Part shown: piece after piece, positions 4,281-26,381 of the stretch | Layout: each line of letters opens with the position of its first letter | How positions within the stretch are numbered: the first letter of the stretch is position 1 | Assembly: GCA_030704615.1 (NCBI GenBank) | Contig: CM060733.1 | Span: forward strand, 32,054,001 to 32,118,000 | Reading direction: 5' to 3' | DNA: 64,000 nucleotides | From: Takakia lepidozioides | Taxonomy: Eukaryota; Plantae; Bryophyta | Made by a program: the position numbers and the translations under genes | Notes under the pieces: model-generated | What the model saw: the letters and a program-made list of their open reading frames with translations, nothing else | The model's database searches: none | Told to the model about the DNA's origin: nothing

Positions 4281-4575
4281 GGAATTTGAACATGCTGTAG
4301 CAATCTGATTTTTCAGCACACAAAGATGCTTGCTTATATGCTTGTCTTGTTGTCATGACTTGCACATAAACAAACCCCGCCCTCCCACCCTGTTTTATCA
4401 TGAATGATTGGGTGAAATCAATTGGGAAGTCATGACAAGAATGGAAGTGTTAGATGGTGCCCTGTTTATGGGCTGTTTATGTCTTTAATTGACAATGACC
4501 CTACTGGGTCTTGTCCATGTCTTGACATGACATGAGTATCTTCCCTATCCCTCTCTCTTTTTAACTTTTTCTGCA

Positions 4576-5571: not shown

Positions 5572-7786
5572 TTGCATGACAGGTGCCAGCCTGTGGGGAA
5601 AGAAAAGAAGTCCCCTGCCCCAAAGAAAGGGGCGGACAATCCGTTTGCTCTGCCGGCACGTGTGACGTGCCAGGGCGTCTCACGGTTAACCAACCCCATC
5701 GATAGCCGCAGCCGGAGGGCTCGTCTGCCCCCCGAGGCCAGTACCCCCCCTCTTGTCCACATCTTGGATACGCCAGGGGCCGGCTCAGCCAGCTCTCCTA
5801 TTCGGGAGGTTGTTGCTGAGCCGGATGCTCAGTTGAGCACACCCTCGGCTACCAAGAGGGGTGAAATGTACCTTGGCAAGCATATCACCCGTTCGGGGGC
5901 CCGGTATGGGCAACTTTTGGATGTCACCCCCATAGCGACCCCTTCCTCCGCAGCAAAGGCTGCACTTGCCCAGGCCCAACGTCAGGTTCAAGGGCCTTTG
6001 ACAGCCTCCGTTGCTAGCCCATTGTTGTCGATGAGGGAGGAGGAGACGAGGAGGGCCAATGAAGTGGCCGAGATAGCGAAGCGCCTCGAAGAAGTCAAGC
6101 TAGGTGAGGGCTTCTACCCTGATACGCATTTGGGGAGGGGGGGGGGAGGAGGAGGTATGGGCCGGTTTGGAGTGGCCTAGCCGATCAGCGACGTCGCCCC
6201 TTGAGCCTGAGTAGTCAGCAAAGAAGGGCCTGGACTACGGGGCGCCGCCGCCGGCTATGCTCCACATCTGGAATCTACTTCTAGTGGCGCTCCGGGAGGG
6301 GATAGAGCGGGCACATCCAGCAACGGGGACTCCTGCCACATCGGGTGACACCGGGGGCGAGTCGGACAAGCTTGCAAAGGTACAAGTGTCGCACTTTGTT
6401 CCATGTTTTATCCTTTCCTTTGCATGCATGATTTTCTTTGTTGTTTGTTTCTTTTTTTGAATTTGGAGGGGTTATTTGTCTTGAGGAGGCAACAACATAG
6501 CTGGCCTCATTGGTGCAGTCCAGTGGGGTTGCCAATGAGGGAGAGCATGTGGTGTTCATGAAGGACCCGAACACCAAAGGTAAGAAGAAGAGGCCTCGAC
6601 CTCCCGAGATCCCCTTTTACCATCAATGAAGGGGTTGCCGAGGAGAGAGAGAGAACGGAGAGGGAGAAGGAGAGAGAGAGGAAGTAGCGGGGATGGGGAA
6701 TGAGATGGTCGTGGAGAAGGGGAAGGAAAAGAAGAAGAAGAAGAAGAAGTCCCATGGAGAGGAAGGGGTGAGTGTGCATGCGGGGGAGGGCAGTGGGGTA
6801 ACAAAGGAGCAGGGAATGAGGCTACAAAGAAGGAAGAGGGTGGGAAGAAGAACATGCCCTTGGCGATACAGGACGTGGAGTTGGCAAAGATCGTGGTGCC
6901 ACCGGTGGAGGTGAATCGCCATGGTGACCCTTGCGGTGCGTTTTGGGAGGCTATGAAGAAGCCAGCCTTCGAACTCGCATTGAGGTGGTTCCCTTTGCAC
7001 ATCGAGTGGGCTGATCAGCACTTTGGCGCGAAGCGGGCGTATGCCCGTGAGTTAGACCGCCGGTTTCCGGGCAATTGGAGTGACACAAGGGTGATGGAGA
7101 TGGTGGGGCGAAACTTGAAGGACAGGAGGTACCGTGCCAGATAGATCATTCGGAGGGCAATGGAAAAGGGGGCCATACCCAAACCACCTTATGGAATTAC
7201 ACAGGTTGGCAAATCCTGAATCATGTCACCTTCCATTTGTCGCATGTGCATTAATGAGGTAGATTCGATGCAACATATGTGTGTAATTCACTAATTGTTG
7301 GGGGGGGGGCATAGGTATCGTGGGATGCACTCATTGCGGGAGAGACTGATGCCGCAAACAAGGCCAAATTTGACCGGGCACGCGAAGCAACAATAGTCCG
7401 CCTTGACAAGCACGAATCCACACACAAGTGGGGCGCCGGCGGATCCAAGGGTTTTATCTTGCGATTTGTAAATCGTACTTCCCTATGGATTTTGTTATAT
7501 CTTCTTTCTGGCTTCATCATCGCGAAGAACTGACTTTAATTTGTGGCATGTGTAGCAACGCGCGTTTGAGAGGAAGCCATCTCCGGTAGAGTACAACTAC
7601 GCCAAGGAGCATGGTTGGCAATCCCTCATGAAGAACATGGCCAACACAGAGGGGATGAGTGCACTACAAGGCACTAGTATGGATGAGGTCGGGGGTAATG
7701 GCCAGGGATTGGATGAGAGCTCTGTGGGACTTAGGGGAACGCCGCCTCATTTAGGTGCTCTTGCAAAGGGCGTGGAGTCATCAGGC
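5572..7786 (+). pseudogene. Degraded CACTA TnpA/Ptta-like (Transposase_24-like) gene; 3' end continues at 26386-26436 after the retroelement
   Basis: Segments ELALRWFP..RRFPGNWSD..NLKDRRYR, SWDALIAGETDAANKAKFDRAREA..THKWGAGGSKGF; removing 7787-26385 restores GVESSG|SSDSSESFTEDEDEYD*; CACTA terminus at 27129. Confidence 0.55.
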
Positions 7787-7873
7787 TGTCGTGCGCATAC
7801 ATATCGCTACACAACTACATCGCTGTCCAAACCACACCACACATATATGCACAATAAAGTAGTCTGCCACAAT
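7787..7873 (-). repeat. Repeat A, terminal copy (87 bp)
   Basis: Matches 8228-8314 with one mismatch. Confidence 0.95.
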
Positions 7874-7876
7874 AAG

Positions 7877-8225
7877 TGATAGAAAAGCTAAGCACACACT
7901 GTTGACATAAAACATGACAACCAAAACCATCACTCTTTAGAATAGAAGTCGAGCCAGGGGCACCCCAAGCTATGGGGACTCCACCCCACAACAACCTACA
8001 CTCCCATCATAAGCACACTCAGTCCTAAACGATGCAGGAGCTCAGTCGCGCAGGCTCAACTCGAGAGAGATGAGCTGCGCGACTGCCGCTCTCGTGAAGA
8101 TAAGACGGTTCAGGTGTCAAACTAAACTTGACACCTGATTTAACACTTGACCTAAATCCAAGTGTTAAATACAAATAACTAGCTTTATTCTAGTTGTTTT
8201 CACACTGTGCTTATTTAACTTGACA
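7877..8225 (-). repeat. Repeat B, 3' copy (LTR-like, TG...CA)
   Basis: Matches 26154-26381 apart from extra 97-bp and 24-bp segments and a few substitutions. Confidence 0.95.
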
Positions 8226-8227
8226 GC

Positions 8228-8314
8228 TGTCGTGTGCATACATATCGCTACACAACTACATCGCTGTCCAAACCACACCACACATATATGCACAATAAAG
8301 TAGTCTGCCACAAT
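8228..8314 (-). repeat. Repeat A, internal copy, directly after the putative PPT
   Basis: Direct repeat of 7787-7873; sense-strand AGGGGGGCG at 8315-8323 precedes it. Confidence 0.95.
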
Positions 8315-8572
8315 CGCCCCCCTAGCTGGTGGATAGGTCCCTCTACCTCCAGATAGCTACAAGATGTAATAGCCACAGCCGTACTAAGTCCTCTATCACT
8401 GTCCCTATTGCACTCAAACCCTATAGACCAAGAGGCCGGGTACAAGAGTAACCCCATCGTTAGTCGCCGTCTTGCAATCTGTGAACTTGAGCCAGGACCT
8501 CGTGTGTTCAAGGTCTCCTAGTAGCTGGGCCTTGCGTTTCTTGTTAGCCTTCCATGGTTGTATCCACTCCCA

Positions 8573-10684
8573 CTATCCAATGCAATGTGGACATAACTAA
8601 TCCCCATCCGGAACCATCTCAAGAGGTGGAGTCAAGCATCCTATATGCCAACCTCTAGAGCATCGATCACACACCAGCATGGTGGCTGCCCCTCTAGCAG
8701 ACCCACACAACATGCACCTCAAGCCTGCAGATACCACTGCCAAGTTTGGGTCTATCCTGCCATCGACATTCGGAAGGTGACATGGCGCACAATTACGCAC
8801 ATGGTCCTTCCAAGTTATGCCATCCCGACCCTCCAAGACCAAGATGCCTGAGGGCAAGACCTCTCGAACCCTCAAAATAACACGTCCTGTAGTCACATCC
8901 AGGGTCGTAGGAGCAGTCTGCTGCAGATAGACATAGTCACCAGGGTTGAATCTCCGAACCCCAGGACGATAGCCCCCACCACGTATGGTAGCATACCTCA
9001 ACGTATCACGGTGTTGTGCAATGGCAAGGTTCTCGAAAGCCATGGGCATGACTCTCTTGAACAACTCTGCACGCTGCTCACATGCACGTGCCCACACGTC
9101 CGGATCGTCAAGGTTAAGAACTGTAGCAGCTTCTATGCGAATGGATGTAGGCAAATCCGGCTCTCGGCCAAAGAGAAGAAAGTATGGTGAGAAGGAGGCA
9201 AGTGATGCTTGCTTGCTGAACCTGTAGCCCATGGCTAACCAGGGTAACTGAAGGTCCCAATCTCCTAGGTGTCCCTTCTGCAAGCCATACTTGCGCAAAC
9301 CCCTCTTTACTGTCTGAACAACTCTCTCTGCCAAGCCATCAGCCTCAGGATGATCCCGAGAAGTGGTGCGGTGGTCTATCAAGGCCTTGTCACACAAAGC
9401 CTGAAACTCCCCCAAGAACTCTCTCCCTTGGTCCATGAGTACCTCAGCTGGAGCACCGAATCGGCTAAGCACACAATCCAAGAATGCATATGCAGCTCCC
9501 TCACTAGCCTTATCAGGCAATGGAACCAATTCAATCCACTTGGAGAAGTGCTCCACCATCACCAACACGTACTTGTTGTGGCGCATGGTTAGTGGCAACG
9601 GCCCTGCAAAGTCAAGACTCCACCTGTAGCCCAATCCCATGATCGGAAGAGGGTGCAATTGTGGAGTAGGGGCATTGAATGAAGCACGCACCCTGTCACA
9701 CACCATGTACCTAGCCACAAATTGTTGCACCTCTGTGTGCATACCACGCCACCAATACTGCCCCTGCAGTAGACTATGAGTGCGTCGCACCCCAAAATGC
9801 CCCAACTTCTCATGGGCATGCCGCACTAACCGTGCCCGCTGTGTTGGGTGAGGCACAATCCTCACTCGACCATCCTCCCACACTCGGAGCAGGTGTGTCC
9901 CCTCCCACTTGAACCTCTTGGCTCGTTGTAGGATCCGATCCCTCTCCTTGGCAGTCAAAGTGGCTGGAGTGTCTCCAGTGCAGAGGTAGTCCAACACAAC
10001 TGAATCCTCATGTATATCTTTGGCGCCACCTTGTTCATTGCTGGCCTCAGGGTCCTCAGACACTTGATCTGCAGTCATCCTTGTTGCAGGTCCAACCTGG
10101 CCTTCCGCTGCCAAGATACACAGAAATGCAGATGCATGCCATCCGGGCACCATCTCCTCGTCCGTCTCACCATGCCACCGAGCTCCAGTGTCATCTTGAT
10201 GGCTCGTGCATGGATTGCGACTCAACCCATCTGCATTGCGATTGACCAAACCCGGTCGATGCACCACCTGAAAGTCATACTCTTGAAGGATGAGTGCCCA
10301 CCGTGCAAGCTTCCCCGTAAGCTTGTCTGACTCCATCAACCATTTGAGTGGTTGGTGATCCGTGACAAGGGTGAAGAGATTGCCGTATAGATAGCACCTG
10401 AAGTGTGCCACGGCCCACACTGCAGCTAAGCATTCTCCCTCATATGAGCTATACTTAGACTCTGCAGCGTTGTTCGAGCGGCTAGCATAAGCCACTACGA
10501 ACTCTCTTCCCTCATCATCCACCTGTGTGAGCACCGCTCCAAGCCCCAGCATGCTCCAATCTGTATGCAGCTGAAAAGGACGCCCCCTAATAGGTCGTCT
10601 CAAGATGGGCGCCGAGGTCAACCTTGCCTTGAGCTCTTGAAAAGCTTGTTCTTGCTCATCTTCCCACTGCCACTCCTGGTCCAC
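8573..10684 (-). pseudogene. Pol C-terminal part: RNase H, DDE integrase and PHD finger
   Basis: LHTDWS..GLGAVLTQ, TDHQPL, HEKLGHFG, WSLDFAGP, DQGREF, ADGLAERVVQ; PHD CMLC..LVCDRCSRGWHIGCLTPPL..PDGD*LCPHC with W replaced by stop. Confidence 0.92.
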
Positions 10685-10698
10685 CTTGGTCAGCTTGG

Positions 10699-11513
10699 TT
10701 AGAGCCTTTGCAATGGCACTAAATCCCTTAACCGTCTGTAATAGTTTGCTAACCCCATGAAAGCTTGAACTCGGCTCACATCCGTGGGGCGTGGAACCTG
10801 TGCAATGGACTCTACCTTAATCAGCTGTACCCCCAATCCTCCAGGATATATCATGTGACCCAGATACTCAATCTGGTTGTGGAAAAACTTGCACTTGCCC
10901 GGATGTAACTTCAATCCGTGCGTCCTCAAGCGCTCAAATACCCCCTGAAGATGTCTCTCATGCTCCTCCACCGTAGCACTAAAGATTATGATGTCATCTA
11001 TATAGCACCGAGCAAACTCCACCCCTGCTAGAATCCTGTCCATGACTCTTTGAAACTCAGCGGGAGCATTTTTAAGCCCAAATGGTAAGAACCGCCACTG
11101 GTATAGGCAATCCTTCTCGTGCTCATTGATCCCCCAGAATGCCGTCTTTTGTTTATCCGCCTCTTTGATCGGCAACTGGTGATATCCGGATCGTAAATCC
11201 AAAGTGCTAAAGACCTTAGCATGCCCAATGGCATCAAAGATCTCCTCTGGTGTGGGCATGGCACATCCTTCTTGGTTGGCATCACTGTGGCTGAAGCATA
11301 CTCTCCACCAGAGAGCTCCACCAAACCTGCCTCCCAGAGATCTTGAGTCCTCATCTGAATCAAAGACCTCTCCATGTCACTGTATCTATAGGGTCTCCGA
11401 AAGATTGGCGTGTCAGTGGCCAACTCAATACGGATCTCTTGACCCTTCAATGCTCCCAAGTCCTTCAAACTGAAGGCAAAGCAATTCCTGTAAGCCTTCA
11501 GGAACCGCCGCAT
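10699..11513 (-). pseudogene. Reverse transcriptase of the outer element (internal deletion and frameshifts)
   Basis: [28 protein letters not shown]; the RMCxDYR segment is missing near 11265. Confidence 0.92.
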
Positions 11514-11795
11514 ACGTCGTCTCTCTCCTCCGGTGACAATGGGTCCAATGTCAGGCTCCCAATTATCCTCCGTAACTGCAACCTTAAGTCCAGTGGGCTT
11601 AGAGGTAGAGGACGCGTCCCGTGGTTGCTATGCTGCAATTTCTTGAGCAGTACTCCCTTCCTGCTCAGTCAATGACAAGGCCTCATCCTGCCCCATCATC
11701 TCATCATTGAGAACCTCCTCAACCCGAGAAGAATCCCCAACCTCATCCATCACAGCTGCCTTGGCTGCCAACTCCCTCTGAACCTCGAGCACCTC

Positions 11796-13028
11796 TCACG
11801 TGTACCATGGATGTCTACACCCCGTGGTCCTCACCGGCTCGCCCCCACTCACTGCCTGTACCGTCTCGGTAGGCCGAGAGACCATGAAGGGGAGTGCACT
11901 CCGCACTCTATGTTGCTCAGCCATAGCCAAGCTGATAATCCAGGTCAAGCAATTGAGATCCATTGCTTGCCCCAACACCTGACGCCGTGATGCCTCAGAA
12001 AGAGAAGGCACCGTCGTGGTCCCAGTGGAAAACCCCATAGCCCGCTCTCGCTCGTCGGCATTAGGCTCCACTAACTGCTGCAACTGAGCATCCCACAGGA
12101 GGCCAGGTCCACCATCCCGAAAAGCATGGGATCCTGGGAAGCTGAGCAGTATAGGTAATGCTGCTCGTGGTTGACCCACCCTGTTGACCACTGCCAAAGG
12201 CGAACGGTCATCATGTCTCACACGTTGAGACTGCCTCCCTGTGTCCAAAATGCTGTCCACTATGAGGTGTGTTGGCCGCTGCACCCCATCAAATGCACGC
12301 TTGAGTAGTGCGGGTGGCATCAAGTTAGTCCACCATAGCCGTGGACGATGAGCCCGTGATCCCACTGCAGCTGCATCCAGCAGCACTGCTGACCCAAGCC
12401 ACGACCGGACTTGATGCACACTGGCCATCACCCTGGCCCGAGAATCGCCCATCAGTGGCACATTCTCCAAGATGTATGCTGGCGATACAGCTTGATGAAG
12501 CTGCAAGTGGCGCAAAATCCGCACCATCTCCCAAAACAGACCCGTCCTCGAGTCTCGCAATACATTACCATGCCCGACTGATGAATGCCCTTGGCAGGGC
12601 CAACCTGCCACTACCAGATCAATGGAGCCAACCTGCTCCAAATCTGGCGCCCCCAACAACGAAATGTCTGCTGGCAAGGCTTGTTGGTATCCACGAACTG
12701 CAGGCACTGGCAACAAAGCAGAGTACTGCTGTACCAACTGAGCAACATGGCGCAGTGAGACACGTCGTGCAGTCTCATCCCTCTCCACATATAGGTAACG
12801 CCTTACCCGCATACCTGCCTGTAGCACAGCAGCCAATCCGGTGGTGATCCCGCCAAACAAGTCCAGAAGGCAAATACCTTCATCCGGATACTGCCACACA
12901 ATAGGTGTGGTATCCAATGGTGACAACTGAGGTGGTCCTGGTGCAATACCCGCACTCTCCTCCTCTCCTGACGGTACAAAAGCCTCTACCCAGGCTTGTT
13001 GCACCCGTCGATCAGCAACCTGCTGCAA
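11796..13028 (-). CDS. DNMT3-like DNA (cytosine-5)-methyltransferase domain within Pol
   Basis: Motif I LLDLFGGITTG, II YVERD, IV DLVVAGWPCQ, VI YILENV, VIII DAAAVGSRAHRPRLWWTNL, IX ERERAMGF, X RRQVLGQAM; same frame as protease and RT. Confidence 0.92.
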   Translation of the reverse strand: MQQVADRRVQQAWVEAFVPSGEEESAGIAPGPPQLSPLDTTPIVWQYPDEGICLLDLFGGITTGLAAVLQAGMRVRRYLYVERDETARRVSLRHVAQLVQQYSALLPVPAVRGYQQALPADISLLGAPDLEQVGSIDLVVAGWPCQGHSSVGHGNVLRDSRTGLFWEMVRILRHLQLHQAVSPAYILENVPLMGDSRARVMASVHQVRSWLGSAVLLDAAAVGSRAHRPRLWWTNLMPPALLKRAFDGVQRPTHLIVDSILDTGRQSQRVRHDDRSPLAVVNRVGQPRAALPILLSFPGSHAFRDGGPGLLWDAQLQQLVEPNADERERAMGFSTGTTTVPSLSEASRRQVLGQAMDLNCLTWIISLAMAEQHRVRSALPFMVSRPTETVQAVSGGEPVRTTGCRHPWYT

Positions 13029-13043
13029 ATCCTTGCTCGTACC

Positions 13044-13595
13044 TCACAATGGAGTGTGAGCAACCATGGCAGGCAACTGCGCCATACCATGCATGTCATC
13101 CTGCTCTGCTGGAGGTGGCACATCCTCTGCATGGGCATTGCCTTCCAGTAACTCTCCAGGCCAACTAACTGCAGCTGTAAAGGTAACTAGTGTTGGCATC
13201 TTGCCCCGCTGGGCAGCCGCTATACCCCCAATGAATGTCACAGGGAGCTGTGCGCGGCGACCATCGCTTGACTGCCATCCAGGCCTGTAGGATGCTGACT
13301 CCTCCCAAAAGTCCAGGGTGAAGCCCATGGGATATAACACTGCCCCACCAACGAGGACATCGTAAGAGATTGCGTCTGTCACAATGGCATTGGCTCGCAT
13401 CACTGAGCCATCTCTAGGATGATCCGGCTGCAGTCTAATGGCCAACTGATGCCGTGTCATGCCCCGAGCCTGCTCTGATCCTCCCAGAGATGTCTGTATC
13501 TGGAAAGGACAATGCTCCATATCCGCCTCCATGAGGCCCAAACCTGCAATAGCAGCTCTGCCCAACATCAATGGCTGAGCTCCCGAGTCCAACAA
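13044..13595 (-). CDS. Retrotransposon aspartic protease
   Basis: LDSGA active site and YDVLVGG motif. Confidence 0.85.
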   Translation of the reverse strand: MLDSGAQPLMLGRAAIAGLGLMEADMEHCPFQIQTSLGGSEQARGMTRHQLAIRLQPDHPRDGSVMRANAIVTDAISYDVLVGGAVLYPMGFTLDFWEESASYRPGWQSSDGRRAQLPVTFIGGIAAAQRGKMPTLVTFTAAVSWPGELLEGNAHAEDVPPPAEQDDMHGMAQLPAMVAHTPL

Positions 13596-15553
13596 CGTAG
13601 TGGCCGGTACTTCTTGCCTGCCTGTCTACTCAAAGAGAAAATGTCATCCTGGTTGTCTAACAAGACAACTACAGGTGTCACCATGGCGCGCTCAAAGGCT
13701 GGCCTAGCTGGCAGCTCCGTCAACCTAGCAGCTGCAACTTGCCATGGCGCAGCCGTGGCAGTCTTGACCCTCAAATCTGAGGATCTCTCTGCCACTACAC
13801 CTTCCAGTAACTCCGCAGAAGATGAAGTGACCTCCCCACTCTCACAGAGTGTTGCTGCTAGTCTGAACACTGCAGCTGGTCTTACCCCCGGCGTCGCAAT
13901 CATGGTTGCCGAGAACAGTGGGGCTTGACACACAGAGGTGGTTGCCCCCAACAACACACCGGCTGCACTAGCCTTGGCAGCAGGTGTCAGTGCTGCACGT
14001 GTAGCTCTCCCCAATGGCATAGAAACCTCCACCTCGGTAACAGTCGGGCGAGAACTAGGTGCCATGGATGGTGTTGACACTGTCTCCGCCAAGGTGAATG
14101 ATTGAGGCAGCCTCGCCTGACGGCTTGCCTCCCCACGTTGTGGATCCAACTCCACCTCTGCACCTCGTGGCTCAGGAACTCGTGCTGCTCCTCGAGTCAC
14201 GGCTGTAGTAGACTCCACCTGCTCTAGTGGTAGTGCTGCTCCGCACATGAATCCCATGCCTCCCATATCTCCTCCCTCAGGAACAAGAGGTGGACCATCC
14301 CGCCTGGGAGCCGATACCGCCTGAGCTGTAGCCATGGCAGCGAGCCTCTGCTCTAGCTGCTGAAGCCGGTTGGCCATGCCTTGGTCAACACCCTGACCTC
14401 CGCGTCCTTGGCCATGTTGAGCTTGCCCTTGGCCTGCACCTCGTGCCCGACCACCTCGTCCTCTCTGGGCTGGTCCACCTCGCCCCCGGCCACCATTGTT
14501 CCCTTGGAACTGGCCTGGGCGCAACTCAGGATGCAAGTCATAACACTGGGCATCTCCATGCCCATACTTGCCACAACGCCCACACTGCAACTGTGCAGGC
14601 TGTGTTTGTGCTGGCCTTTTGCCACTCTCTGGGCAATCTTTCTTGACATGGGGTCCTCCACATGTCCAACATATCACCCCTGGTTGCTGTTGGCCTGCAA
14701 AAGATGCCACGGGCCTCTGCACCTGAGGTCCCCTGTAAGCTCCATGGAACTTGGGTTGGGAAACCTTTCCCCCCTGACCACGCTGTTGGGCAGTCCCTTG
14801 TGCCTGTGGGCTGGCAGCTGCGCCTCGTGCAGACATGTCCTTGCCAAACCCAATGGTAACAACTCGCTCCTCCACCATGTTGAGCTCAATCCGCTCAGCC
14901 AACAGAAACACATCTGCTAATGTGGGTTAGGCTGCTTGTAACAGGGTTGCATCCCGCACCCTTCTCCTGAGCTCCTTGTCCAAAATTCCATACCAGAACT
15001 GGATTGCCTCAGTAACCCCTTGGGTCACACTTATCAAGCGTCTCATACGAGTGTAGGCCTCTCGCAAGCTCTCACTGGGTTTGCGCTGGAAGTCTTGCAA
15101 ACTTCGCAGCTTCTCTGTCCGTACACCTTGGTAGTTCCTCCGCAACTCCTGAAAGAACTCCATCACAGGGTTGAATCTAGGCACATGTGTTGTAGTCGTG
15201 GCAGGAGGAGTAGTAGCACATTTTGAACTGGTACCACCTGTAGAAGTACCGGCACTACTTGTTCCACTACTAGTGCTGGCAGTGGGAGATATTGGTACTG
15301 ATGCAGCTACTGGTCGCGTCGTGCCTCGAGTAATGGAGACGTAGTCAGGTGACCAATACATCCTCCACTCCTCAATCTCTGCTTCATGTCCTCGCCTGAA
15401 CTCGTGGTAATCGTCCATAGGCGGGCCTTCCAAATGCTGGAACAGTCCCTTCCACGCCATGAATGGGGGAATAGCTGTGGGTTGCGCATCTGCTGCAAAT
15501 CACACCAGCTGTCGAACTCCTGGATAAAGTCATCCAACTCGATTGTGCCCATA
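13568..15553 (-). pseudogene. gag of the outer element, 3' part (frameshifted), with zinc knuckles
   Basis: GTIELDDFIQEFDSWCD, FQRKPSESLREAYTRM, CWTCGGPHVKKDC, CGRCGKYGHGDAQC. Confidence 0.85.
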
Positions 15554-16277
15554 TGTCGCACACCTCAGTTCGGTAAACTCCCCTTCAAGTCATAGTTACT
15601 CGCTTTGATGCGCGCGCCTGACTCCCAACCTGGCCGCCGGGCCAACTTGGAGTTTCGGCTGCTCACCGGGACATAACGGTCCCCTTCCGCTTCCCTCTAA
15701 ACCCTCCACCTATTTGGGACTAGGAGAATTCCCTTTGGTAGATGGCAGTCCGGAACAGCTCCCCACTCTTTGGTCGCTTTCCGGCTCGCTCGCTTACTCA
15801 CTAGTTTTTGGTCACCAACGGGCTTGCACCGTTCTCGGGGTTACTACTCCCTATATATACTTCTGTAGCTGTCTGCGGGGGTTTCATAACCAGCCATGCC
15901 ATTTTATGGCGAACCACCACGAAAACCCTCGACTCCCGGTGGTGAGTCGCGGTGAGTCTTGGCCCACTCACCGCGGCCCCAATGGACCGTGATGAGTCCC
16001 AAGACTCCCCACGACTCCCACCTCGAGGTCTCCACCCCATGGTGAGTCCTATGCCACCCCCACTAAGTCCCACTAAGCTACCACCACCCCTTGTGGAGCC
16101 ACCTCCACCGCAACCCGGTGTGCGGGGCTCCACCTAGTGAGCGCCTCCGCCTCCTTGAGTGCCTTGGGCACTCAAGGGTGCTTCAGCCCCCCATACCTAT
16201 CGCTGCCGCTGCCCCCACCACAGGGGCAGCCCCTCATGTGTCCCGACCCCCTGCCCTCAAGGCAAAGGGCCGCGACA
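15554..16277 (-). repeat. 3' LTR of the nested chromovirus
   Basis: Direct repeat of 21801-22524. Confidence 0.97.
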
Positions 16278-17183
16278 CACACCCCTACCAACAGGGAGTC
16301 GATGTCCTCATCGACTTGTCCATTTTGTAGAAACGAACATCCAAGTTGTGGCGTCCCACATCAAGGAGTTTGTTTCCGTACCATGGCGTCCCATGGCAAA
16401 GAACCAAACCCCACACTTGACTCCACTCTCCACTAGCTAGTTCGGCCGACTTCCTCCAAGTCCCGGCCAAGGGTGGAGCCTCTCCAGCTCCTCCCAGTGC
16501 ACTCTTCTTGGCCTACTTCAAGGCCAAGGAACGATCCTCCCCGAGGATCGAATCGCCTTACTGCAACAACATTGCTTGCGATCGCTCATGATGCCGCTTT
16601 TGGCATCACCTTGAGCAAGGGTTCACCTGGAACCCTCTTTGACTAGGAAGATAACCTTGAACCAACCGTGCGCCCCAATCACTACAATTGGGTCCGCCTT
16701 GGAATGCTGGCCTGAGGTACGGGAACACGCCGAAGCCGCACTACGACTTCGTCCCGAGGCTACACGATTATAGTACGTGAACGGAAGCACGTAGCTTCCG
16801 CGTTAGCCCGCACTACAAGGCAACCCCCTCGGTAGCGCAGTTATAGTACGCGCACGCGCCAGGTGCGCACTAGCACTTGAACTCCCAAATAAGGCGCAAG
16901 TTTCCTTGCCCCTTGGATGGGAGTCACCCGATTTCGGCACTGCGCAAACACACGATTAACCCAATTTACCTCTCCCACTTTTGTAAGCTAGCATGCATTC
17001 TACACACCAGCCAACCACACCATGCATCACCATTCCAAACACAATAGGACGCACAATATTTGGAACCCATTTCCTTTATCACAAATTTTTGTACAATACA
17101 AGTTTTTGCAATCGGATTCCTGAGCTAGCTAAACCGGGCTAAGCATGCATTTCCTCCCCCACGCTCCAAGGTTGATGTCCCCA

Positions 17184-20100
17184 TCAACGCTTCTTCCGCT
17201 TTTGAGGTCGCCCTTCGAACGCTGCAACTGCCTCGGATGCGTTTCCCATTTCTGAGGCACGCACCCAAGATGCCTCCACAAGATGATAGCCCTTCCATTT
17301 GACGAGATACTCCGTTTCTCGGTTCTTGAACCTCCTCGACTTAAGTATTGCCTCCACCTCGTACTCGGGTTCATTTTCATGATCCAACAGCATAGGTGGC
17401 GGACGCAACACTTGCTGCCGATTCGGACGTGCTTCATCTTTGAAGTAAGGCTTCAAAAGGGAGACATGGAATACTGGGTGCACCTTGCTGTTTGCTGGCA
17501 GCTCCAATTCATACACATCCTCATTCATAACCCTCCGAATGCGAAAGGGACCCGCATACGGAGGTACGAACTTCGGACTCATTTCCGGAGGTAGTCGAAA
17601 ATTCTTGATGTTCAACCAGACCTCTGTGCCTGCCTCAAACTTCACTTCCCTCCGCTTCCGATTCGCCTGCCTTTCATACCGTTTCCTAGCTTTGGCAATG
17701 TTGTACTTTGCGAGCTTCAACAAACGCTCGCGTTCTTCCAGTACCGCCGCTACTGCCGGTTCCTCAACGTCCTGGGCGGCCCAACTTGTCGGCACCAGAG
17801 GTGCTTTTCCATAGACCAACACAAAAGGGGAAACTCCCGTCGCGGAGTGTTCTGTGTTATTATAACAGAACTCTGCCGCGTCTAAGTGTTCCATCCAGTC
17901 TGATTGGTCTGCCGACACGTAATTCCGCAAGAATTGCTTCACTACGGAATTCACTCTTTCCGTTTGGCCGTCCGTCGTAGGTCGGAAGGCGGTGCTCATC
18001 TTCAGCCTCGTCCCCATCTTCTTCCAAAGTGCTCTCCAGAATTTACTCGTAAACTTTGGGTCGCGGTCCGAGACAATATCCTTCGGGACTCCATGATGCT
18101 TTAAGACGTGGGCGAAGTAAAGTCGCCCTGTCTCCTGCGCAGTTGCCGTCTCCTTGGTGGGGATGAAATGGGCCATTTTACTGAACCTATCTACCACCAC
18201 CATGATTGCATCGAATCCTTTTGACAGCGGCATAGCAGTCATGAAATCCATCGAGACGCTTTCCCAAGTCCCCTCTGGAATCGGCAAGGGTTGTAACAGC
18301 CCCGCTTGCTTTTTATACTCGCTCCGGTTTTGTTGGCATGTGGTGCATGTTTTACATACTCCTCTGCCTCCTCCCTCAGTTTGGGCCAGAAATACTCTTT
18401 CTTCAAGAGTGCCGCAGTGCGCTTGGCTCCACCGTGGCCCGCAAGCGGGCTATCATGGCATTCTCTCAAGAGACTATCCCTGATCCCTCCCTTTGGCACA
18501 TAGAGACGTTTTTGCTTATACCGGAGCAGTCCGTTTTGCAAGTGGAACTGCGATTTAACCCCCATTCTCAAGTTCTGCATCACGCACTTTGCCAGCTCAT
18601 CCTTCCGGCAAGCCTTCCGGATCTTCCTTTGGAGCGCCGTCTCGCCCTTGTACACCAACAAGAGCTGCTGCTTTCTACTTAAAGCATCGGCCACCACATT
18701 GTCCCGTCCCGGTTTGTACTGGATATCCACGTCGAACACTGCCAAAGTATCTTGCCACCTAAGTTGTTTTGGGGACAACTTGGGCTGCGTGGCAAAATAC
18801 TTCACCGTGACATTGTCCGTGAACACCTTCACTGGGTTGGAACCAACATAGTGGCGCCAGAGTTCAAGGCAATGTACCACCGCCTTCATCTCTTTTTCGT
18901 GCGTCGGCCACCGTCGCTCCACTTCATTCAGTTTCTTACTTTCGTAAGCCACTGGACGTCCATCTTGCATAAGTACACCCCCAATTGCGAAGTCCGATGC
19001 ATCTGTATGAATCTCAAACGGACGATCGAACTCCGGGATTTTTAAGACTGGAGCTTCCGTCATCCGCTGCTTCAATTCAGCAAAAGCTTGGCCACAAAAT
19101 GTGTTCCATACCCAGACTTTGGATTTACACAGAAGGTCCGACAGCGGCCCCGCGATCTTGGCGAAATTTCTCACATACTTCCGGTAATAGGAGGCGAGTC
19201 CTAGGAAGGATCGCACTCCCGGGACCGAAGTCGGAGGCTCCCAGTCCAAGATCGCCCTCACCTTTCTGTCATCCATTTTGATCCCATCCTGTGTAATCAC
19301 GTGCCCCAAGAACTCCACTTTTGTGACCCCGAATTCGCACTTTGAAGCTTTGGCATACAGCTTCCCTTCTCGCAATTTTTGGAACACCCTTTTGAGGTGC
19401 TCCAGGTGCTCCTCCTTTGTTTTCGAGTACACCAAGATGTCGTCGATGTACACGATCACAAAGTCATCCAACCACTCCTGGAAAAGGCTGTTCATCAGCG
19501 TGCTAAATGTCGCTGGTGCATTGGTGAGCCCAAAAGGCATCACCAAGAACTCATATGAACCATACCTTGTCCTGCACGCGGTCTTCTCCTCATCTCCTTC
19601 CGCCACCCGAATTTGGTGATAGCCGGAGCGCAAGTCGATCCGGCTGAAATACTTCGCTCCTGCCAACCGATCGAAGAGGTCGTCGATCCTTGGCAAAGGG
19701 TACCGGTTTTTGATAGTCACCTTATTCAGAGCCCTGTAATCGACACACATCCGCAGCGTCCCATCCTTCTTGTCTGCAAATAGCACCGGGGCTCCGTAAG
19801 GTGACTTACTCGGCCGGATGTACCCCTTTGACATTAGATCTTTGAGCTGAGTCTTCAGCTCGACCAACTCTTTGTGGCTCAACCGGTAGGGCGCCTTGGC
19901 AGGCGGTTCCGATCCCGGTATCACCTCAATTTTGTGGTCAACTCCTCTTCGCGGTGGCAAGCCGCTTGGTAAATCCTCCGGCATCACATCCTGGTATTTC
20001 TCCAAAATCCCCTTGATCCAATCTGGGCTCGGCTCCCCATCGCCTTCTCCTTTCACTTCTCTAATGTAAAGCAAAAACTGGGACTCGTGTGTCTCCTCCA

Positions 20101-21808
20101 CGGCCCACTCCTTTGCTGATAGAAGGTTTATTCGCCCTCCCACGGATTTGGGCGTTTCCGACACTCGTAAAACCTCGCCACCATTCCCACATGGCAGCGT
20201 GACTACTCTCTTGCGGCCATCTATGACCGCTCCGGATTTGCTCAAAAAGGTCATTCCCAAAATGAGATCCACTCCATCGATCTCGCAGATAGTGAAGTTC
20301 TCACGTCCCTCCCAACTCCCCAGTTGAAGAGGAACATCAAACGCCAACCTTGTCGCCAACTGAGGTTCTCCTTTGGCAGAGCGCACCTCAATAGAGGCCC
20401 CCACGTCACTTGTCGGGAGTCCCAACTTTCGCGCCGCCGCCGGCGTCATGAAGGAGTGCGACGCTCCTGTGTCCACCAACAACGACACATTAGTTCCGGA
20501 TATTATCCCATCCACGAACAATAACTGACTCCCTTTTCGTAAGGCGCCAGTTTCCTGATACAACTCACAAGAAAATTTGCCTACCTTGCAAGTCCTGGCG
20601 ACCACCGCTTCCACCAAGCGACTGATGGTATCTTCCGACAGCTCCGTGGTCGCCCGAGTCATGTTCAATTGCCGGGGCTTCGTGCACTTCTTGGCCATGT
20701 GCCCGGGCTCCCCGCAATTGAAACACACTCCATCAAAGGTCGCCTTCTGTCCGCCATAAGTCGCTCCACCCGCTTTTCCTTTCGAAGCACCGGGTGCCGC
20801 CTTGACGTGTGAAGGACCTCCCTTCGATTTCCACGTGCCATTTTCGCCGCGTGGCCTATCCCACTTCTTTTCCGGTCGGAAGGAGTCACCTTCCCGCCGG
20901 GTCTTCTTGTGGTTCAGCTCCGTACGGCCTTGTCTCTCACCCCTAGGGACATCCGAGAAACATTCAGCTCTCTCAATTGCCTCGTTCAAAGTCTTGGGTG
21001 GCTTCTCCTCCAACTTCCGCCTAGCCCATGGGGCCAGTCCCGCCACAAAGTTGAAGACCATTTCTGGTTCTGCCATGTCCGCGACTTCGAGCAACAGCAC
21101 ATTGAAAGCCTGGACATACCCCCGAATGTCATCTGTTTGCTTCAAATTCCTCATCTTGTCCCGGGCAAGCCAGGATGCGTTGAGGGGCACAAACTGTCTC
21201 TTCATCAATTCCTTGAACTCACTCCAGTTCAAGGTTTCCGGGCTTGGGCCTCGGTCGTGAAGGCGTTTCTGCCACCATTGTTGAGCATAGCCCCTCAAAT
21301 AGGTGGGAGCCACTTCCACCCGATCCTCGTCACTCAACTTGGCCGCCCGGAAGTACTGCTCTAGCTCCAGGAGCCAGGTGTTGAGTGCCTTCCGGTTTCG
21401 AACGCCCTCGAAGGTGCCGGGTTCCTTAGGCTTCACCTTAAACTTTGCCTTGGTGGAAGTGGCATTAGCCGCCTTCAACACGTCTTTCAACGTCCCGCCA
21501 AACTGCGCCAACAACCCTTCCCAAAAGGCTGCCGGCATGGGAGGCATCTCTTGGCTTGTCGGAGCTCTCAAAGATTCCTCGGGCTCCGACTCCTCGGATT
21601 CCTCCCGCTCCTGAGCGGCCTCGTTTTCGGAAACATTAATCGCTTCCTCAAACGGCCGCCTCGGTGACACGTCGCCCCCATCGGGCTCACCGGGATCATC
21701 ATCTTTTGGGCCGTTCCGCTTTCGCTTCGGCTTGCCCGACCCCATGATGAGGCCAATCCCAAGGACGATCGCGTACTGAACTCTAGGCTCTGATACCAAA
21801 TGTCGCAC
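17184..21808 (-). CDS. gag-pol polyprotein (Gag, CCHC, PR, RT, RH, INT, chromodomain); single 1-nt frameshift near 18350
   Basis: [63 protein letters not shown]; restoring one A in the AAAA run gives [11 protein letters not shown]. Confidence 0.95.
21787..21798 (-). promoter_or_regulatory. Primer binding site, tRNA-iMet
   Basis: TGGTATCAGAGC 2 nt downstream of the 5' LTR. Confidence 0.92.
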
Positions 21809-22524
21809 ACCTCAGTTCGGTAAACTCCCCTTCAAGTCATAGTTACTCGCTTTGATGCGCGCGCCTGACTCCCAACCTGGCCGCCGGGCCAACTTGGAGT
21901 TTCGGCTGCTCACCGGGACATAACGGTCCCCTTCCGCTTCCCTCTAAACCCTCCACCTATTTGGGACTAGGAGAATTCCCTTTGGTAGATGGCAGTCCGG
22001 AACAGCTCCCCACTCTTTGGTCGCTTTCCGGCTCGCTCGCTTACTCACTAGTTTTTGGTCACCAACGGGCTTGCACCGTTCTCGGGGTTACTACTCCCTA
22101 TATATACTTCTGTAGCTGTCTGCGGGGGTTTCATAACCAGCCATGCCATTTTATGGCGAACCACCACGAAAACCCTCGACTCCCGGTGGTGAGTCGCGGT
22201 GAGTCTTGGCCCACTCACCGCGGCCCCAATGGACCGTGATGAGTCCCAAGACTCCCCACGACTCCCACCTCGAGGTCTCCACCCCATGGTGAGTCCTATG
22301 CCACCCCCACTAAGTCCCACTAAGCTACCACCACCCCTTGTGGAGCCACCTCCACCGCAACCCGGTGTGCGGGGCTCCACCTAGTGAGCGCCTCCGCCTC
22401 CTTGAGTGCCTTGGGCACTCAAGGGTGCTTCAGCCCCCCATACCTATCGCTGCCGCTGCCCCCACCACAGGGGCAGCCCCTCATGTGTCCCGACCCCCTG
22501 CCCTCAAGGCAAAGGGCCGCGACA
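21801..22524 (-). repeat. 5' LTR of the nested chromovirus
   Basis: Direct repeat of 15554-16277. Confidence 0.97.
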
Positions 22525-22529
22525 CCATA

Positions 22530-22795
22530 GCTCCAGAGTACCTACGAGGCCCCTTGGTAGCTCCATACATCTCCTCCATGTCGTCCCACAACAATGGCGA
22601 ATGAAACTGCACACCTGTTGATGAAGCCTCCGAGTCTGTGTCTGACTCTGCACTAGTTGAGGGTGGAGGTGAAGGTGGTTTGAAACGAACACCTCGTCTG
22701 GTGAACCCACTCTCACTGCTACTGCCTGTAGCCGTACTCCCCTCAAAACCCTTGGGTAACTCCGTGATGACACTCACAATGTGCACCTCCCCCAC
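22530..22795 (-). pseudogene. gag of the outer element, 5' part
   Basis: ...KGPRRYSGAM joins in frame to GTIELDDF after removing the nested element. Confidence 0.8.
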
Positions 22796-23338
22796 GTGAC
22801 ACTATAGGGCTCTAGTACTAATTCTAATAGTGACACGGGTGGGCACTTGTTGCAGTTTAAGGGTCATATCCCAATGGCTCAGGGCACCTGCACCTGCATC
22901 CACCGCAAGAACTCCTATGGTTGGCTGGTCATCAACCCAGCCTCACCATAGAAGAAACACTGGTGGTCTTGTTGGTCATCACTCCAGCCTCACCACCGAC
23001 AGCATACTCTAGGATTGACCGGTGATCAAATCCGGCCTAATCCCTATGAAAGCAAGCGCCCACACAAAACCAACATGGCGCACAGTCAAGCATGCAGGTG
23101 TTGGGGGGGATCCAAACACAAGAAATCAAAACATCAACACCCCCACACCAAAATCCAGCTGCAATGATCTTGCAGAATAGCCCAGCCCAAAACCCCGGAC
23201 TGACTGGCCTCCACCAAGAGAGGCTTTGGCAACTACAAGTACAAGGTAATGAAAATAGTACAGAGATGGAGGGGAAGAATAGAAGCCCGACCAAGCAAGA
23301 TCTAATCCTGATCTATGCTATCAACTGTCAGACTTCTC

Positions 23339-24061
23339 TCAAAGTGCCTCGCTCTGCATGATGGTAAGGTGTAGGAATACATCTATGTCTAGAAACCTGC
23401 CACTAACCTTGTCCCAAGCTACAGTAGCTTGCTCTAACCAACCCTCCTCCTCTTTCTGCCAGGTAGAGACAAAGCAACACTCTGCTATCTCCCGCTCACG
23501 GAACACTAAAGAAAACAAAGGTAGGGTCTGATAGTCTCTCAACTCGAAAGCTTTGAGACGGTTGCGGGTGTCCTCATTGCGAATGACTGCATCTCCTTCA
23601 AGCAGAACAAACTTGTCCTCGCTAATGAACCCCCGCTCGTGGTTGCCTTGTGCAGAGCGTGTCCGGCTGCAATGCTGTCTAATTGCACAAACTTCAGTAG
23701 CTCCTGCTCCTCTGCTCCAGTACACCATGGCCTTGTGGCTAAACACCTTGGTACCCGGGGCTGTCTTTGGCTGTGTTCCAAGCCTAGCTTTCACCCACTT
23801 TGGTATTTCACCTACAGCTGCAAAACTGCTGGCTCCAACAAAGTTCTGACTGTCCAAAGCGATATTGAGGCCCTCAACGCCAACTACAGCAGTCTGTTGT
23901 GTACTGCTAATGCCTGACTCCCAGTATGCAATCAACTCGTCCAACTGTTCTCCACTCAAATCAGTCTGAGTTCCTTGGGAAACATAAATCTTGTCCCCTT
24001 GGGTGTACAGGCTAAGAGAAGAGACCTGCCCTTCAATTACGTCCTCATTTCCCCCAGCCAT
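23339..24061 (-). CDS. Extra 240-aa ORF upstream of gag, unknown function
   Basis: Open ATG-to-stop frame with globular composition inside the outer element. Confidence 0.55.
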   Translation of the reverse strand: MAGGNEDVIEGQVSSLSLYTQGDKIYVSQGTQTDLSGEQLDELIAYWESGISSTQQTAVVGVEGLNIALDSQNFVGASSFAAVGEIPKWVKARLGTQPKTAPGTKVFSHKAMVYWSRGAGATEVCAIRQHCSRTRSAQGNHERGFISEDKFVLLEGDAVIRNEDTRNRLKAFELRDYQTLPLFSLVFREREIAECCFVSTWQKEEEGWLEQATVAWDKVSGRFLDIDVFLHLTIMQSEAL

Positions 24062-24389
24062 ACAAGGAGGACATCCACAAATTTGTCTCTCATATAGACC
24101 AGCACAGGTTCTAGAAACAGAATTGTGGATTTTTCATGGCACACTCACACTCTAAAAATTCCATAGATTTTTAGCAGAGTCCCAAAAACAAAAACTGAGT
24201 CAAACGGAGCTCATTTGACAAAGATATGATCAACCAACCTCTAAATCATTTGAATTAGATCAAAAAGGTTTTTTTTTTTCTTAAACACCAAAACGTTCTC
24301 GCCATTAAAAACTGTTCCCAAGTCACCTACGAGTTCCCAACACGTCCATGTAGTTTTCACAGATTCCCTGGATTTCACCTACAGGTGTT

Positions 24390-24600
24390 TCAAACACTGG
24401 TGAACTGCTCTGCAACGCGACCTGATTTCAGCATCTCATCTTGGTTCTGGGTGAGAAGCTTCACTCGCTCGATGGGAGCCGCAGCAGTCTTAGACACAGC
24501 TGCAAAGACTCCACCCATAAGAAAGTTGATCATAAACCCTACGACACCCTTTTCCGCAGGTGCAGGAACAAAGTTCATAGGAGCGAGATTAGAAGGTACG
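24390..24600 (-). pseudogene. Captured fragment of mitochondrial ADP/ATP carrier
   Basis: [42 protein letters not shown]. Confidence 0.9.
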
Positions 24601-24744
24601 AGGCTCTGGCCTCCTCTTCACTGCTGCTGCTGACAGATTTGTGGTAGCTCTGTGTTGTAGAAGAAGGCATAACGGTGCTGTGTTACGGGCTGTTGGGTTG
24701 CATCACCTCGGACATGGGGTCGTGCGTCTACTAATGGGAGGATC

Positions 24745-25630
24745 AGTTCGAGCAACCTTGGCCAACTCTTTTCGGTCCTGAGAAGCAACCAGACTGCACA
24801 CTGCTCTTGGAGGTAATACTTCCTTTCCTATCTCTATCAACAAACCCACCATGTTGCGCATTTGTCTGTACAGAAAACCCGTGCCTTCCACTTCAAACTG
24901 CAATTGCGGACCCGTTGCAAGAACATTGAATTGAAGGATCTTTCTGATCGGAGGCCGCAGTGGTGGGTCGTTTGAAGTATTGGCGAATGCTGAAAAATCG
25001 TGCTCACCAACAAAGTAAGAGGCAGCTTCCTGCATGGCATGAGCATTGATCTCATGCCTTATGTGATGGGCATAAGAGCACTGGAAGGGGTCCATAACTG
25101 GAGCAACATAGGCCCTGTATTGATATATCTTTCTAAGGGCAGAGAATCGGGCATGAAATTCTGGTTGCACTGCGGACACCTCTCGTACTCGAATGTCATA
25201 GGGCAGAATGCCATTCAGGGATGTATGCAAGAATTGTAACTGGTCAAAGCAATATGGAGTCACAAAATGAGCCACCTGACCCCAGGCATGAACACCAGCA
25301 TCTGTGCGGCCTGCAGCGCAAAGAAGCAGCTGATCACGTGTGCATCTGGTCACCTTGGCCAGTGCATCCTCTACCAAGTACTGCACTGTCACACCGTTTG
25401 CCCTTGACTACAGTCGCCACCCTGAGTAATTGGTGCCATCATAGGAGATCACCAACCTCCATTTCCATGTGGGTTTGCTCTCCACGCCGACTTCAGTCTG
25501 AGTGAGCTCAACGCCACTATGAGGAGTCTTGAAGGTTAAAAGCCCGTTGTCTGGCTTCGCACTCTTAGCACGATTCATCTGACCACTGCGACAGCTATAG
25601 GGAGTTCTAAGTTCCTTGTAAACCCAACCC
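24745..25630 (-). pseudogene. Captured intronless tRNA pseudouridine synthase (TruA family) copy, C-terminally truncated
   Basis: KWRLVISYDGTNYSGW, AGRTDAGVHAWGQVAHF, FHARFSA, GEHDFSAF, GTGFLYRQMRNMVG; one internal stop. Confidence 0.9.
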
Positions 25631-25639
25631 CCATCGTTG

Positions 25640-25735
25640 TGCCTTATCACGATGGGCCCGTTCTTGTAGGGACAAATGGAACTCTTAACATTTATACCAT
25701 CTACTACGGTACTTTCACTGCTGCCCAGCTAGTAC
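25640..25735 (+). pseudogene. Captured antisense fragment of a PHI-1/EXORDIUM-like gene
   Basis: YHDGPVLVG..LNIYTIYYGTFT resembles the PHI-1 N-terminal motif. Confidence 0.65.
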
Positions 25736-26139
25736 CCCTTATGCACAGCCCACATAATCCTTCTCCCCCAACAAGCCCACTGGCCTGCTCAACACAAAGC
25801 CCAGCAAAGGCCCTCAACGAGAAGACCCCCGGCGCCACTGACACCACGCCCCCGCAGCCTCTCCATACGCCTGGGCCAGTTACCGGATCACCACACGCAC
25901 CTCGCACCTCGCCAGTAGCTTCACTGGCGCGACTCCTCAAGCTTCTCCAACATGCTGCGATTCTGGATGGGCTACTCTTTGTTTGAGCAGCATGCTGTGG
26001 ACGCCGAGCTACCACTCATTGAAGAAGAACGCTCTGGATTCGAACTGCAAAGCATTGGCCTCTGGCGACCTTCTCTACTATAATAGTGCTTAAAAACAAA
26101 AACATCATATCTAGCCTAGCACTGGAAAACTAGATAGAA

Positions 26140-26153
26140 TCATCTCTCTCGAG
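26140..26153 (-). promoter_or_regulatory. Putative self-priming PBS of the outer element
   Basis: 26140-26155 is a perfect 16-bp inverted repeat of 26238-26253 inside the 5' repeat; no TGG tRNA-type PBS. Confidence 0.65.
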
Positions 26154-26381
26154 TGATAGAAAAGCTAAGCACACACTGTTGACACAAAACATGACAACCA
26201 AAACCATCACTCTTTAGAATAGAAGTCGAGCCAGGGGCACTCGAGAGAGATGAGCTGCGCGACTGCCGCTCTCGTGAAGATAAGACGGTTCAGATTTAAC
26301 ACTTGACCTAAATCCAAGTGTTAAATACTAATAACTAGCTTTATTCTAGTTGTTTTCACACTGTGCTTATTTAACTTGACA
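26154..26381 (-). repeat. Repeat B, 5' copy (LTR-like)
   Basis: Homologous to 7877-8225; followed on the plus strand by TSD AGGC. Confidence 0.95.

Follow-up and report, generated by a model that had tools for sequence, protein, structure and literature searches.

Organization of the element

The window (the whole stretch of DNA analysed, 64,000 nucleotides of Takakia lepidozioides contig CM060733.1) contains a decayed Ty3-type retrotransposon on the minus strand at 7787-26381. Its domain order is Gag, protease (PR), DNA methyltransferase (DNMT), reverse transcriptase (RT), RNase H (RH), integrase (IN) and PHD finger. The features of the element are as follows.

7787..26381, minus strand: whole element; TG...CA termini; 4-bp duplication at 7783-7786 and 26382-26385; empty-site joint 7782>26382 (runs X1 and X7)
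26152..26381, minus strand: repeat A1, 5' end; 228 of 230 letters identical to A2, with two internal gaps of 24 and 97 nt
26240..26253, minus strand: 14-nt stretch within A, complementary to the sequence directly after A1; predicted transcript start and self-primer
26140..26153, minus strand: predicted primer-binding site for self-priming; by inspection not of the tRNA type
24703..25728, minus strand: captured, intronless piece of a TruA-like tRNA pseudouridine synthase (PF01416, E=1.3e-26); low depth, so few copies
24402..24578, minus strand: captured N-terminal piece of a mitochondrial carrier (PF00153, E=1.7e-6), which we take to resemble the ADP/ATP carrier
23339..24133, minus strand: extra upstream ORF of ~240 aa; no Pfam match; high depth in the organism, by which its copies share the ORF; no match in the 81 related loci
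22525..22900, minus strand: 5' part of gag, upstream of the nested insertion; matches the start of the Marchantia proteins P0001 and P0002
15554..22524, minus strand: nested young chromovirus from outside the family, interrupting gag; LTRs identical at 724 of 724 letters; 5-bp duplication
13568..15553, minus strand: 3' part of gag, broken; two zinc-knuckle motifs at 14633-14671 and 14543-14584
13044..13625, minus strand: aspartic protease; LLDSGA at 13578-13595; no Pfam match in the window copy, PF13650 (E=2e-4) in the related locus L062
11796..13043, minus strand: DNMT3-like C5 methyltransferase (PF00145), all catalytic motifs present
11622..11630, minus strand: conserved amber stop in CAR-YYA context, a predicted readthrough signal, ending the Gag-PR-DNMT ORF
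10699..11627, minus strand: reverse transcriptase (PF00078), broken in the window copy; YIDD at 10993-11004
8597..10816, minus strand: RNase H, integrase (zinc finger and DDE core) and C-terminal PHD finger (~8620-8716); PF17917, PF17921, PF00665 and PF00628
8314..8329, minus strand: polypurine tract (PPT) directly before repeat B1
8228..8314, minus strand: repeat B1; 86 of 87 letters identical to B2
8221..8232, no strand: internal palindrome, the two terminal sequences of the element joined with a 2-nt spacer; predicted integrase site
7875..8225, minus strand: repeat A2
7787..7873, minus strand: repeat B2, 3' end

The window copy is dead: it contains stops, the frame is shifted close to the Gag/PR boundary and within RT, RT has a gap at 11263, and the nested element interrupts gag. 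Across the four runs in which the element is present, the DNMT is covered as deeply as RT and integrase. The TruA and carrier pieces are covered 50- to 1000-fold less deeply than the other parts, and a joint at 24682>25575 indicates molecules that lack the TruA piece. The two intronless pieces in the 5' region suggest copy-specific capture of mRNA. A link between the TruA piece and readthrough (see below) was considered and dropped, as few copies have the piece and relatives are without it. The nested chromovirus encodes ORFs of 1190 and 421 aa and a chromodomain, and its termini also read TGTCG...CGACA.

DNA methyltransferase domain

The DNMT reading frame (13043-11796, minus strand) runs for 415 aa without a stop and matches PF00145 with E=2.3e-11. 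The motifs, numbered by the general C5-methyltransferase scheme, are I (DLFGG, 12863-12849), II (YVERD, 12791-12777), IV (WPCQ, in 12620-12591), VI (ENV, in 12476-12459), VIII (RAHRPR, 12356-12339), IX (ERERAMGF, 12053-12030) and X (LGQAMD, 11975-11958). Their order is non-permuted and the catalytic PC, ENV and RxR are all there. In 66 related loci, mostly decayed, ENV is kept in 63 and PCQ in 48. In a PDB sequence search the best 29 of 35 matches were DNMT3A/B/C (top E=2.7e-10), with DRM-type enzymes and HhaI weaker. An AlphaFold model had a pTM of 0.71, with low confidence in the target-recognition region; among the Foldseek matches listed for this model all 38 rows were DNMT3A/B, the best with E=3.4e-13 at ~20% identity. 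The domain is of the DNMT3 type, since both sequence and fold searches rank DNMT3A/B above others. The preliminary description had reported intact, DNMT3-type C5-methyltransferase motifs at 11796-13028 and proposed a PF00145 search; all of the motifs were located, and the profile and structure matches agree with it. The domain also belongs to the element and not to this copy only, as depth is even in the four runs and relatives were found both as proteins and as loci.

Repeats, priming and route of integration

The repeats are laid out as A1-internal-B1-GC-A2-B2, split around a conserved palindrome. Neither this layout nor the integrase PHD finger was noted in the preliminary description. The PPT lies directly before B1, and directly after A1 comes the 14-nt site that could pair with the middle of A; from these two positions the true LTR is read as B-GC-A, with priming perhaps of the Tf1 style. 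The large moss-like family of relatives has a different complementary pair, of 10-17 nt, located ~30 nt downstream of a TATA box (TATAAA) in 6 of the 19 loci. A match at the expected place was absent in the other 13 of these loci, and none was found in L012. Complementary pairs with unrelated sequences occur in two families, and the element may be self-primed.

The palindrome CACGACA-NN-TGTCA follows the PPT and B in the window element and in L005, L047, L050, L081, L062 and L069, and it is kept in families whose DNMTs are just 48% identical. The termini of integrated copies fall at this LTR-internal palindrome, and no 5' end begins with B. Split repeats are present in the window element, L050 and L081, and partly in L005, L047, L062 and L069. 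Exact 4-bp duplications flank 7 of the 10 loci with both ends, and 5-bp duplications none; a target duplication was not found in L032 and L049. Integration at the internal site is considered very likely. The A|B junctions vary: they are clean in L047 and L081, hold 18 nt of filler in L050 and two extra letters in the window, and include 10 nt of primer-site sequence in the rearranged copy L060/L063. Variation of this sort is expected if the ends of a linear cDNA are joined.

A circular intermediate is proposed from the split ends, the PPT, the predicted self-primer and the variable A|B junctions. Self-primed reverse transcription would give an ordinary linear cDNA bearing a B-A LTR at each end, and joining of its ends would produce a circle with a variable A|B junction. 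Integrase would then open the circle at the LTR-internal palindrome; a two-LTR circle cut once would yield A-internal-B-A-B. The shorter form A-internal-B could arise from a one-LTR circle, from two cuts, or by later B-B recombination. Cutting at a palindromic LTR-LTR junction is within the capacity of foamy virus integrase, and integrase cleavage of the palindrome at the 2-LTR circle junction has been reported for HIV-1 (PMC1180852, PMC1905944). The use of an end-joined circle is considered somewhat more probable than not.

Alternatively, A-internal-B-A-B could be copied as a unit, with the A|B junction inherited and A-internal-B formed by later B-B recombination, so that no two-LTR circle would be involved. 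Such copying has been proposed for the split-repeat DIRS/Ngaro elements. It would fit the finding that only a single permutation occurs where two are possible: none of the 24 5' ends scored, which represent 22 distinct flanks and include the 3' remnant L054, shows the mirror product A-B-A-internal-B. This absence counts against a circle cut at random, since a two-LTR circle should also give the mirror form. The insertion forms of an old family (14 distinct A-internal-B only, 4 with a B-A junction) match later loss as well. However, the PPT directly before B1 and the primer site directly after A1 stand where ordinary LTR copying requires them, and in that process the RNA 3' end cannot serve as template for B2; the filler and the primer-site remnant differ among copies of one family; and Pfam scans found no tyrosine recombinase in the scanned window ORFs or in those of L062. 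Copying as a unit is considered unlikely, and the end-joined circle is preferred.

Stop codon between the methyltransferase and the reverse transcriptase

The protease, the DNMT and the RT N-terminus had been described as sharing one frame and as separated only by point stops. The shared frame was confirmed, with stops at 13046, 11798 and 11630, and the second part of the statement was not. The stop at 13044-13046 is private to the window copy, since in each of the 4 runs nearly all of the depth shows a different letter at 13044, and relatives have no stop at 11796-11798; the stop at 11628-11630, in contrast, is conserved across families. Stops were tallied in 82 sequences (81 related loci and the window). 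Of these, 22 were dropped for want of an anchor, and the remaining 60 contain the end of the DNMT as well as the start of RT. In 53 of the 60 loci, TAG or TAA stands in frame 75-135 nt before RT and is followed by CAR. Most of the 60 come from one family and several are duplicates, so that the independent cases amount to about six families. The remaining loci have TAG with a decayed codon (4), an insertion at the site (2) or no stop (L032). By comparison, CAR follows 9 of the 305 decay stops within the DNMT. These data mark the stop as conserved and not as decay.

The context reads TAG-CAA-CCA in the window and L012, TAG-CAG-TTA in L061/L062, TAG-CAA-TCA in L069, TAG/TAA-CAA-CCC in the moss-like family (TAA in 15 loci) and, decayed, TAG-TAG-CCA in L074. 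The exact UAG-CAR-YYA is present in 4 of 6 families (that of the window and three others), and the moss-like family differs at the sixth letter. The codon two after the stop encodes Pro, Leu or Ser and yet YYA is kept, which indicates that the constraint acts on nucleotides. The frequency of CAR-YYA in the window element is 0.33% of positions. UAG-CAR-YYA is the readthrough signal of TMV, with 32% readthrough in a plant reporter (PMC2754532). The naturally intact member L062 (976-8229) has both ORFs open; they measure 1369 aa and 1047 aa and are split solely by this codon, the first Met of ORF2 being residue 117. The Marchantia proteins P0001 and P0002 end 98 residues past motif X. RNA stems after the stop gave mixed results (z = -0.7 to -2.8 in six elements). 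From the conserved stop, its TMV-type context and the intact two-ORF L062 we infer, with good confidence, that Pol is made by readthrough of the amber codon. The DNMT would then be made at the high level of Gag, and RT and integrase at a low level. Contrary to the preliminary description, the DNMT is not part of the Pol ORF; it forms the last part of a Gag-PR-DNMT ORF that closes with the conserved amber codon in its readthrough context.

In another reading, the TAG would be bypassed by splicing, either as a 3' splice site or as part of an intron like that of Ogre elements, by a separate pol transcript or by an internal start, with the DNMT still on the Gag side. The stop codon here ends in AG. 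The gene models P0003, P0008, P0009 and P0029 (Marchantia and Sphagnum) run from DNMT into RT and skip the stop region, but they disagree with each other, each skipping at a different point. Moreover, the 40 nt before the stop contain only 15-33% T, the six letters kept after it match CAR-YYA rather than an exon start, and a 2173-nt contig of run X7 (RNA, by our guess) covers 9910-12002 with no skip at the stop. An internal start could use the ATG that the moss-like family has two codons after the stop, but the first Met lies at residue 3, 5, 14, 39, 48 or 117 in six elements. In favour of a bypass, the gag-pol junction of Tca2 did not act as a readthrough signal and contained a minor promoter (PMC2194720). 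A bypass of this kind is regarded as quite improbable beside readthrough.

Related elements and selection

Relatives named in protein searches come from Marchantia polymorpha, Marchantia paleacea, Calypogeia fissa, Riccia sorocarpa, three Sphagnum species and Closterium. A large further group, at 34-42% DNMT identity, has Chromochloris, Monoraphidium and Haematococcus as named members. A profile search returned 475 clusters at E<=1e-30. The ESM Atlas search gave DNA-methylase clusters only, the first mostly of Streptophyta, and one weak locus (L001) was found in the viral sequence collection searched. No Klebsormidium-named rows were among the relatives listed in the protein searches. The proposal of an element related in kind to those of Klebsormidium in a land-plant-like setting is borne out to the extent that the nearest named relatives are bryophytes.

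Three layouts were observed: RNase H-DNMT-integrase, in the chlorophyte-named proteins; PR-DNMT-RT joined in a single ORF, in P0289, P0291/P0409 and the Closterium protein P0384; and PR-DNMT-stop-RT, that of the window element. RT-RH-DNMT-IN-PHD is the order in 103 relative proteins, while 42 show PR-DNMT and no further domain behind it. The PHD finger is found on the integrase in both the window-type and the algal-type architecture. P0030, P0032 and P0167-P0282 belong to a large group of algal Ty3 polyproteins that have a PHD and in which RNase H and integrase flank the DNMT; several of them also carry PF01585. The named members of this algal group are chlorophytes, which are not given for Gypsy-DNMT3 in the published text as available.

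A quick RT tree placed the window with L074, L012, Marchantia and moss-like RTs (87), inside an 11-row group (94), and the algal RH-DNMT-IN group apart (97); sisterhood of the latter to the window group is not shown by the tree. In a quick DNMT tree without outgroup, the window, Marchantia, Calypogeia and the moss-like rows come together in one group (99%). Both trees were built without host DNMT3 and Klebsormidium rows and give no donor or direction.

The dN/dS of the DNMT in pairs among L061, L062 and L069, the least decayed relatives, is 0.13, 0.12 and 0.11, with 0.09-0.11 for the protease. Within the decayed moss-like family it is 0.43-0.69, and pairs with the window are saturated (pN 0.18-0.22, pS 0.73-0.74). 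The comparison of copies suggested in the preliminary description thus indicates purifying selection. The low ratios, together with relatives across liverworts, Sphagnum, Closterium and chlorophytes, identify the DNMT as an old, selected module of the element lineage, and it is probably both selected and active. A recent, neutral capture of a host DNMT3 mRNA, for which the window copy offers a parallel in its intronless host pieces, is extremely improbable, since DNMT depth is even with the element where that of the captured pieces falls 50- to 1000-fold, distant families have the DNMT at the same position with dN/dS of 0.11-0.13, and identity is 34-42% to chlorophyte element DNMTs versus ~20% to DNMT3A. 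The two findings named beforehand as contrary, absence of the domain from other copies and recent neutral capture, are both contradicted by its family-wide presence and these ratios.

Proposed role of the methyltransferase

In the proposed mechanism the first ORF, Gag-protease-DNMT, would end at the amber stop, and readthrough at a low rate would add RT-RNase H-integrase-PHD. The DNMT would be made at capsid level, released from Gag-PR by the protease and packaged in the particle. There it might methylate CG in the new cDNA, and the copy would enter the genome already marked. The account as a whole (capsid-level DNMT, readthrough Pol, and a circle cut at the internal palindrome) is given a probability of about 0.6. 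That new cDNA is the main substrate of the DNMT is a view towards which we lean slightly. It is backed indirectly by the selection on the domain, its position, the CG activity of a DIRS-borne DNMT3 and the CpG deficit of the element relative to the nested chromovirus.

The element has a CpG observed/expected value of 0.47, with CpA/TpG at 1.44; CpG is at 0.87 in the nested chromovirus, and CHG, at 1.05 in the element, shows no loss. The rest of the window is equally low in CpG (0.46-0.54), so that CpG loss in the element is explicable by host methylation and age. In the coding region of L081, from the moss-like family, CHG observed/expected is 0.55 versus 1.05 in the window element, hinting at hosts that differ in CHG methylation. 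The DIRS-borne SymbioDIRS-Dnmt3 is active on CG in yeast; the Klebsormidium enzyme gave no methylation in yeast, a result its authors deemed inconclusive (PMC5890265).

After release from Gag, the DNMT might instead act mainly on chromatin, at the insertion site or on existing copies. This would serve self-limitation or benefit the host, and the chromatin would be selected by the PHD finger of the integrase. Expression at Gag level would supply far more enzyme than one cDNA needs, the PHD finger is shared by both architectures, and de Mendoza et al. name chromatin effects and host benefit as options (PMC5890265). Against this, no targeting partner accompanies the DNMT within its ORF, and its place between RNase H and integrase in the 103 algal-type proteins favours action on cDNA or at integration. 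Chromatin as the main target is the chief competing reading but is rated as doubtful, and methylation of new cDNA is retained as the preferred role.

Comparison with known elements

The element has the canonical Ty3/gypsy traits of PR-RT-RH-IN order, DDE integrase, PPT, TG..CA ends and target duplication. It lacks two complete terminal LTRs, its termini being halves of an LTR-internal palindrome. It is probably a relative of KnitGypsy-Dnmt3 from Klebsormidium nitens, with which it shares the Ty3 domain set, an intronless, non-rearranged DNMT3 under purifying selection, and DIRS-like repeats A1...B1-A2-B2 (PMC5890265). In KnitGypsy-Dnmt3 the DNMT is in one ORF with RT and RNase H, whereas a conserved stop lies between them here. 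For this reason, and because the trees contain no Klebsormidium rows, the element is not assigned to KnitGypsy-Dnmt3. The acquisition of the DNMT was placed in the K. nitens lineage (PMC5890265), whereas relatives of the window element span liverworts, Sphagnum, Closterium and chlorophytes. The available text of that article on KnitGypsy-Dnmt3 contains no occurrence of PHD finger and gives no primer, target duplication or integration model.

The stop shares its six-letter UAG-CAR-YYA context with TMV type I readthrough (PMC2754532). Like the in-frame stops between gag and pol or pol and env in MuLV, SIRE1 and Tca2, it would set a structural to enzymatic ratio (PMC2754532, PMC2194720), and retroelements need ~20 Gag per Pol (PMC2194720). 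Unlike readthrough stops directly after Gag, it comes after the protease and an extra enzyme. Tf1/Sushi and Tcn1 have a primer site complementary to LTR sequence just after the TATA box, as is predicted here, but they are chromoviruses with ordinary LTRs (PMC6317226), and the window lineage has a PHD finger and permuted repeats. The 2-LTR junction of foamy virus and HIV-1 resembles the palindrome in that two att ends with a short spacer are the proposed integrase substrate (PMC1180852, PMC1905944); these viruses form theirs by ligation, whereas here it is encoded inside each LTR and a spare is kept in integrated copies.

DIRS, Ngaro and PAT elements and SymbioDIRS-Dnmt3 share the A...B-A-B layout, and the last carries a DNMT3 passenger too (PMC5890265). 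All of these integrate by tyrosine recombinase, in contrast to the DDE integrase, TG..CA ends and 4-bp duplication of the window element. Assignment to DIRS/Ngaro was rejected on the presence of PF00665 and PF17921 and the lack of a recombinase match in the ORFs scanned (window and L062). The moss non-chromovirus Phygy prefers NCGN insertion sites (PMC6317226); assignment to Phygy by target preference was likewise rejected, as 0 of 8 exact duplications were NCGN.

Novelty and implications

The open-access article text searched contained nothing on this element in land plants, its readthrough or its integration, and the retrotransposon DNMTs published in it are from algae and protists. PMC12344493 and a 2026 preprint mention streptophytes without detail in the text available, and their trees may already hold bryophyte sequences. 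LTR finders require two full LTRs (PMC6317226). Permuted ends escape such programs, and the lineage is therefore likely missing from plant transposable element classifications. Counts of host DNMTs in bryophytes may include element-borne enzymes. The Marchantia polymorpha relatives are annotated as hypothetical or DNA-methylase genes, which makes the question of why a transposon carries a silencing enzyme testable in a land-plant model. The position of the stop predicts enzyme dosage, and the permuted-end lineage would provide a natural example in which integrase works at an internal junction.

More tentatively, and with odds somewhat below even, the elements may form a green-plant-wide, PHD-bearing Ty3 lineage that has held a DNMT3 since before the chlorophyte/streptophyte split, or passed it between lineages. 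In its land-plant branch the DNMT would lie on the capsid side of the leaky stop, particles would be filled with it and copies pre-methylated, and integration would proceed by opening an end-joined circle at the att palindrome. If true, the end-joined circle route, long deemed marginal for retroviruses, would be the integration pathway of this lineage.

Other features of the window

Outside the element, an integrase-core ORF lies at 28474-28968 on the minus strand (PF24764, E=2.4e-27). LINE-like remains at 42648-45869 comprise an endonuclease (42648-43313, minus strand) and an RT (44799-45869, plus strand) on opposite strands, with a zinc knuckle nearby at 41440-42111. A cupin-domain ORF is found at 53184-53726 on the plus strand (PF07883, E=1.3e-17). 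Tandem repeats of 192 nt occupy 3625-4317, and repeats of 62-64 nt with the palindrome ATGAATTTCGGCGCCGAAATTCAT occupy 63106-63493.
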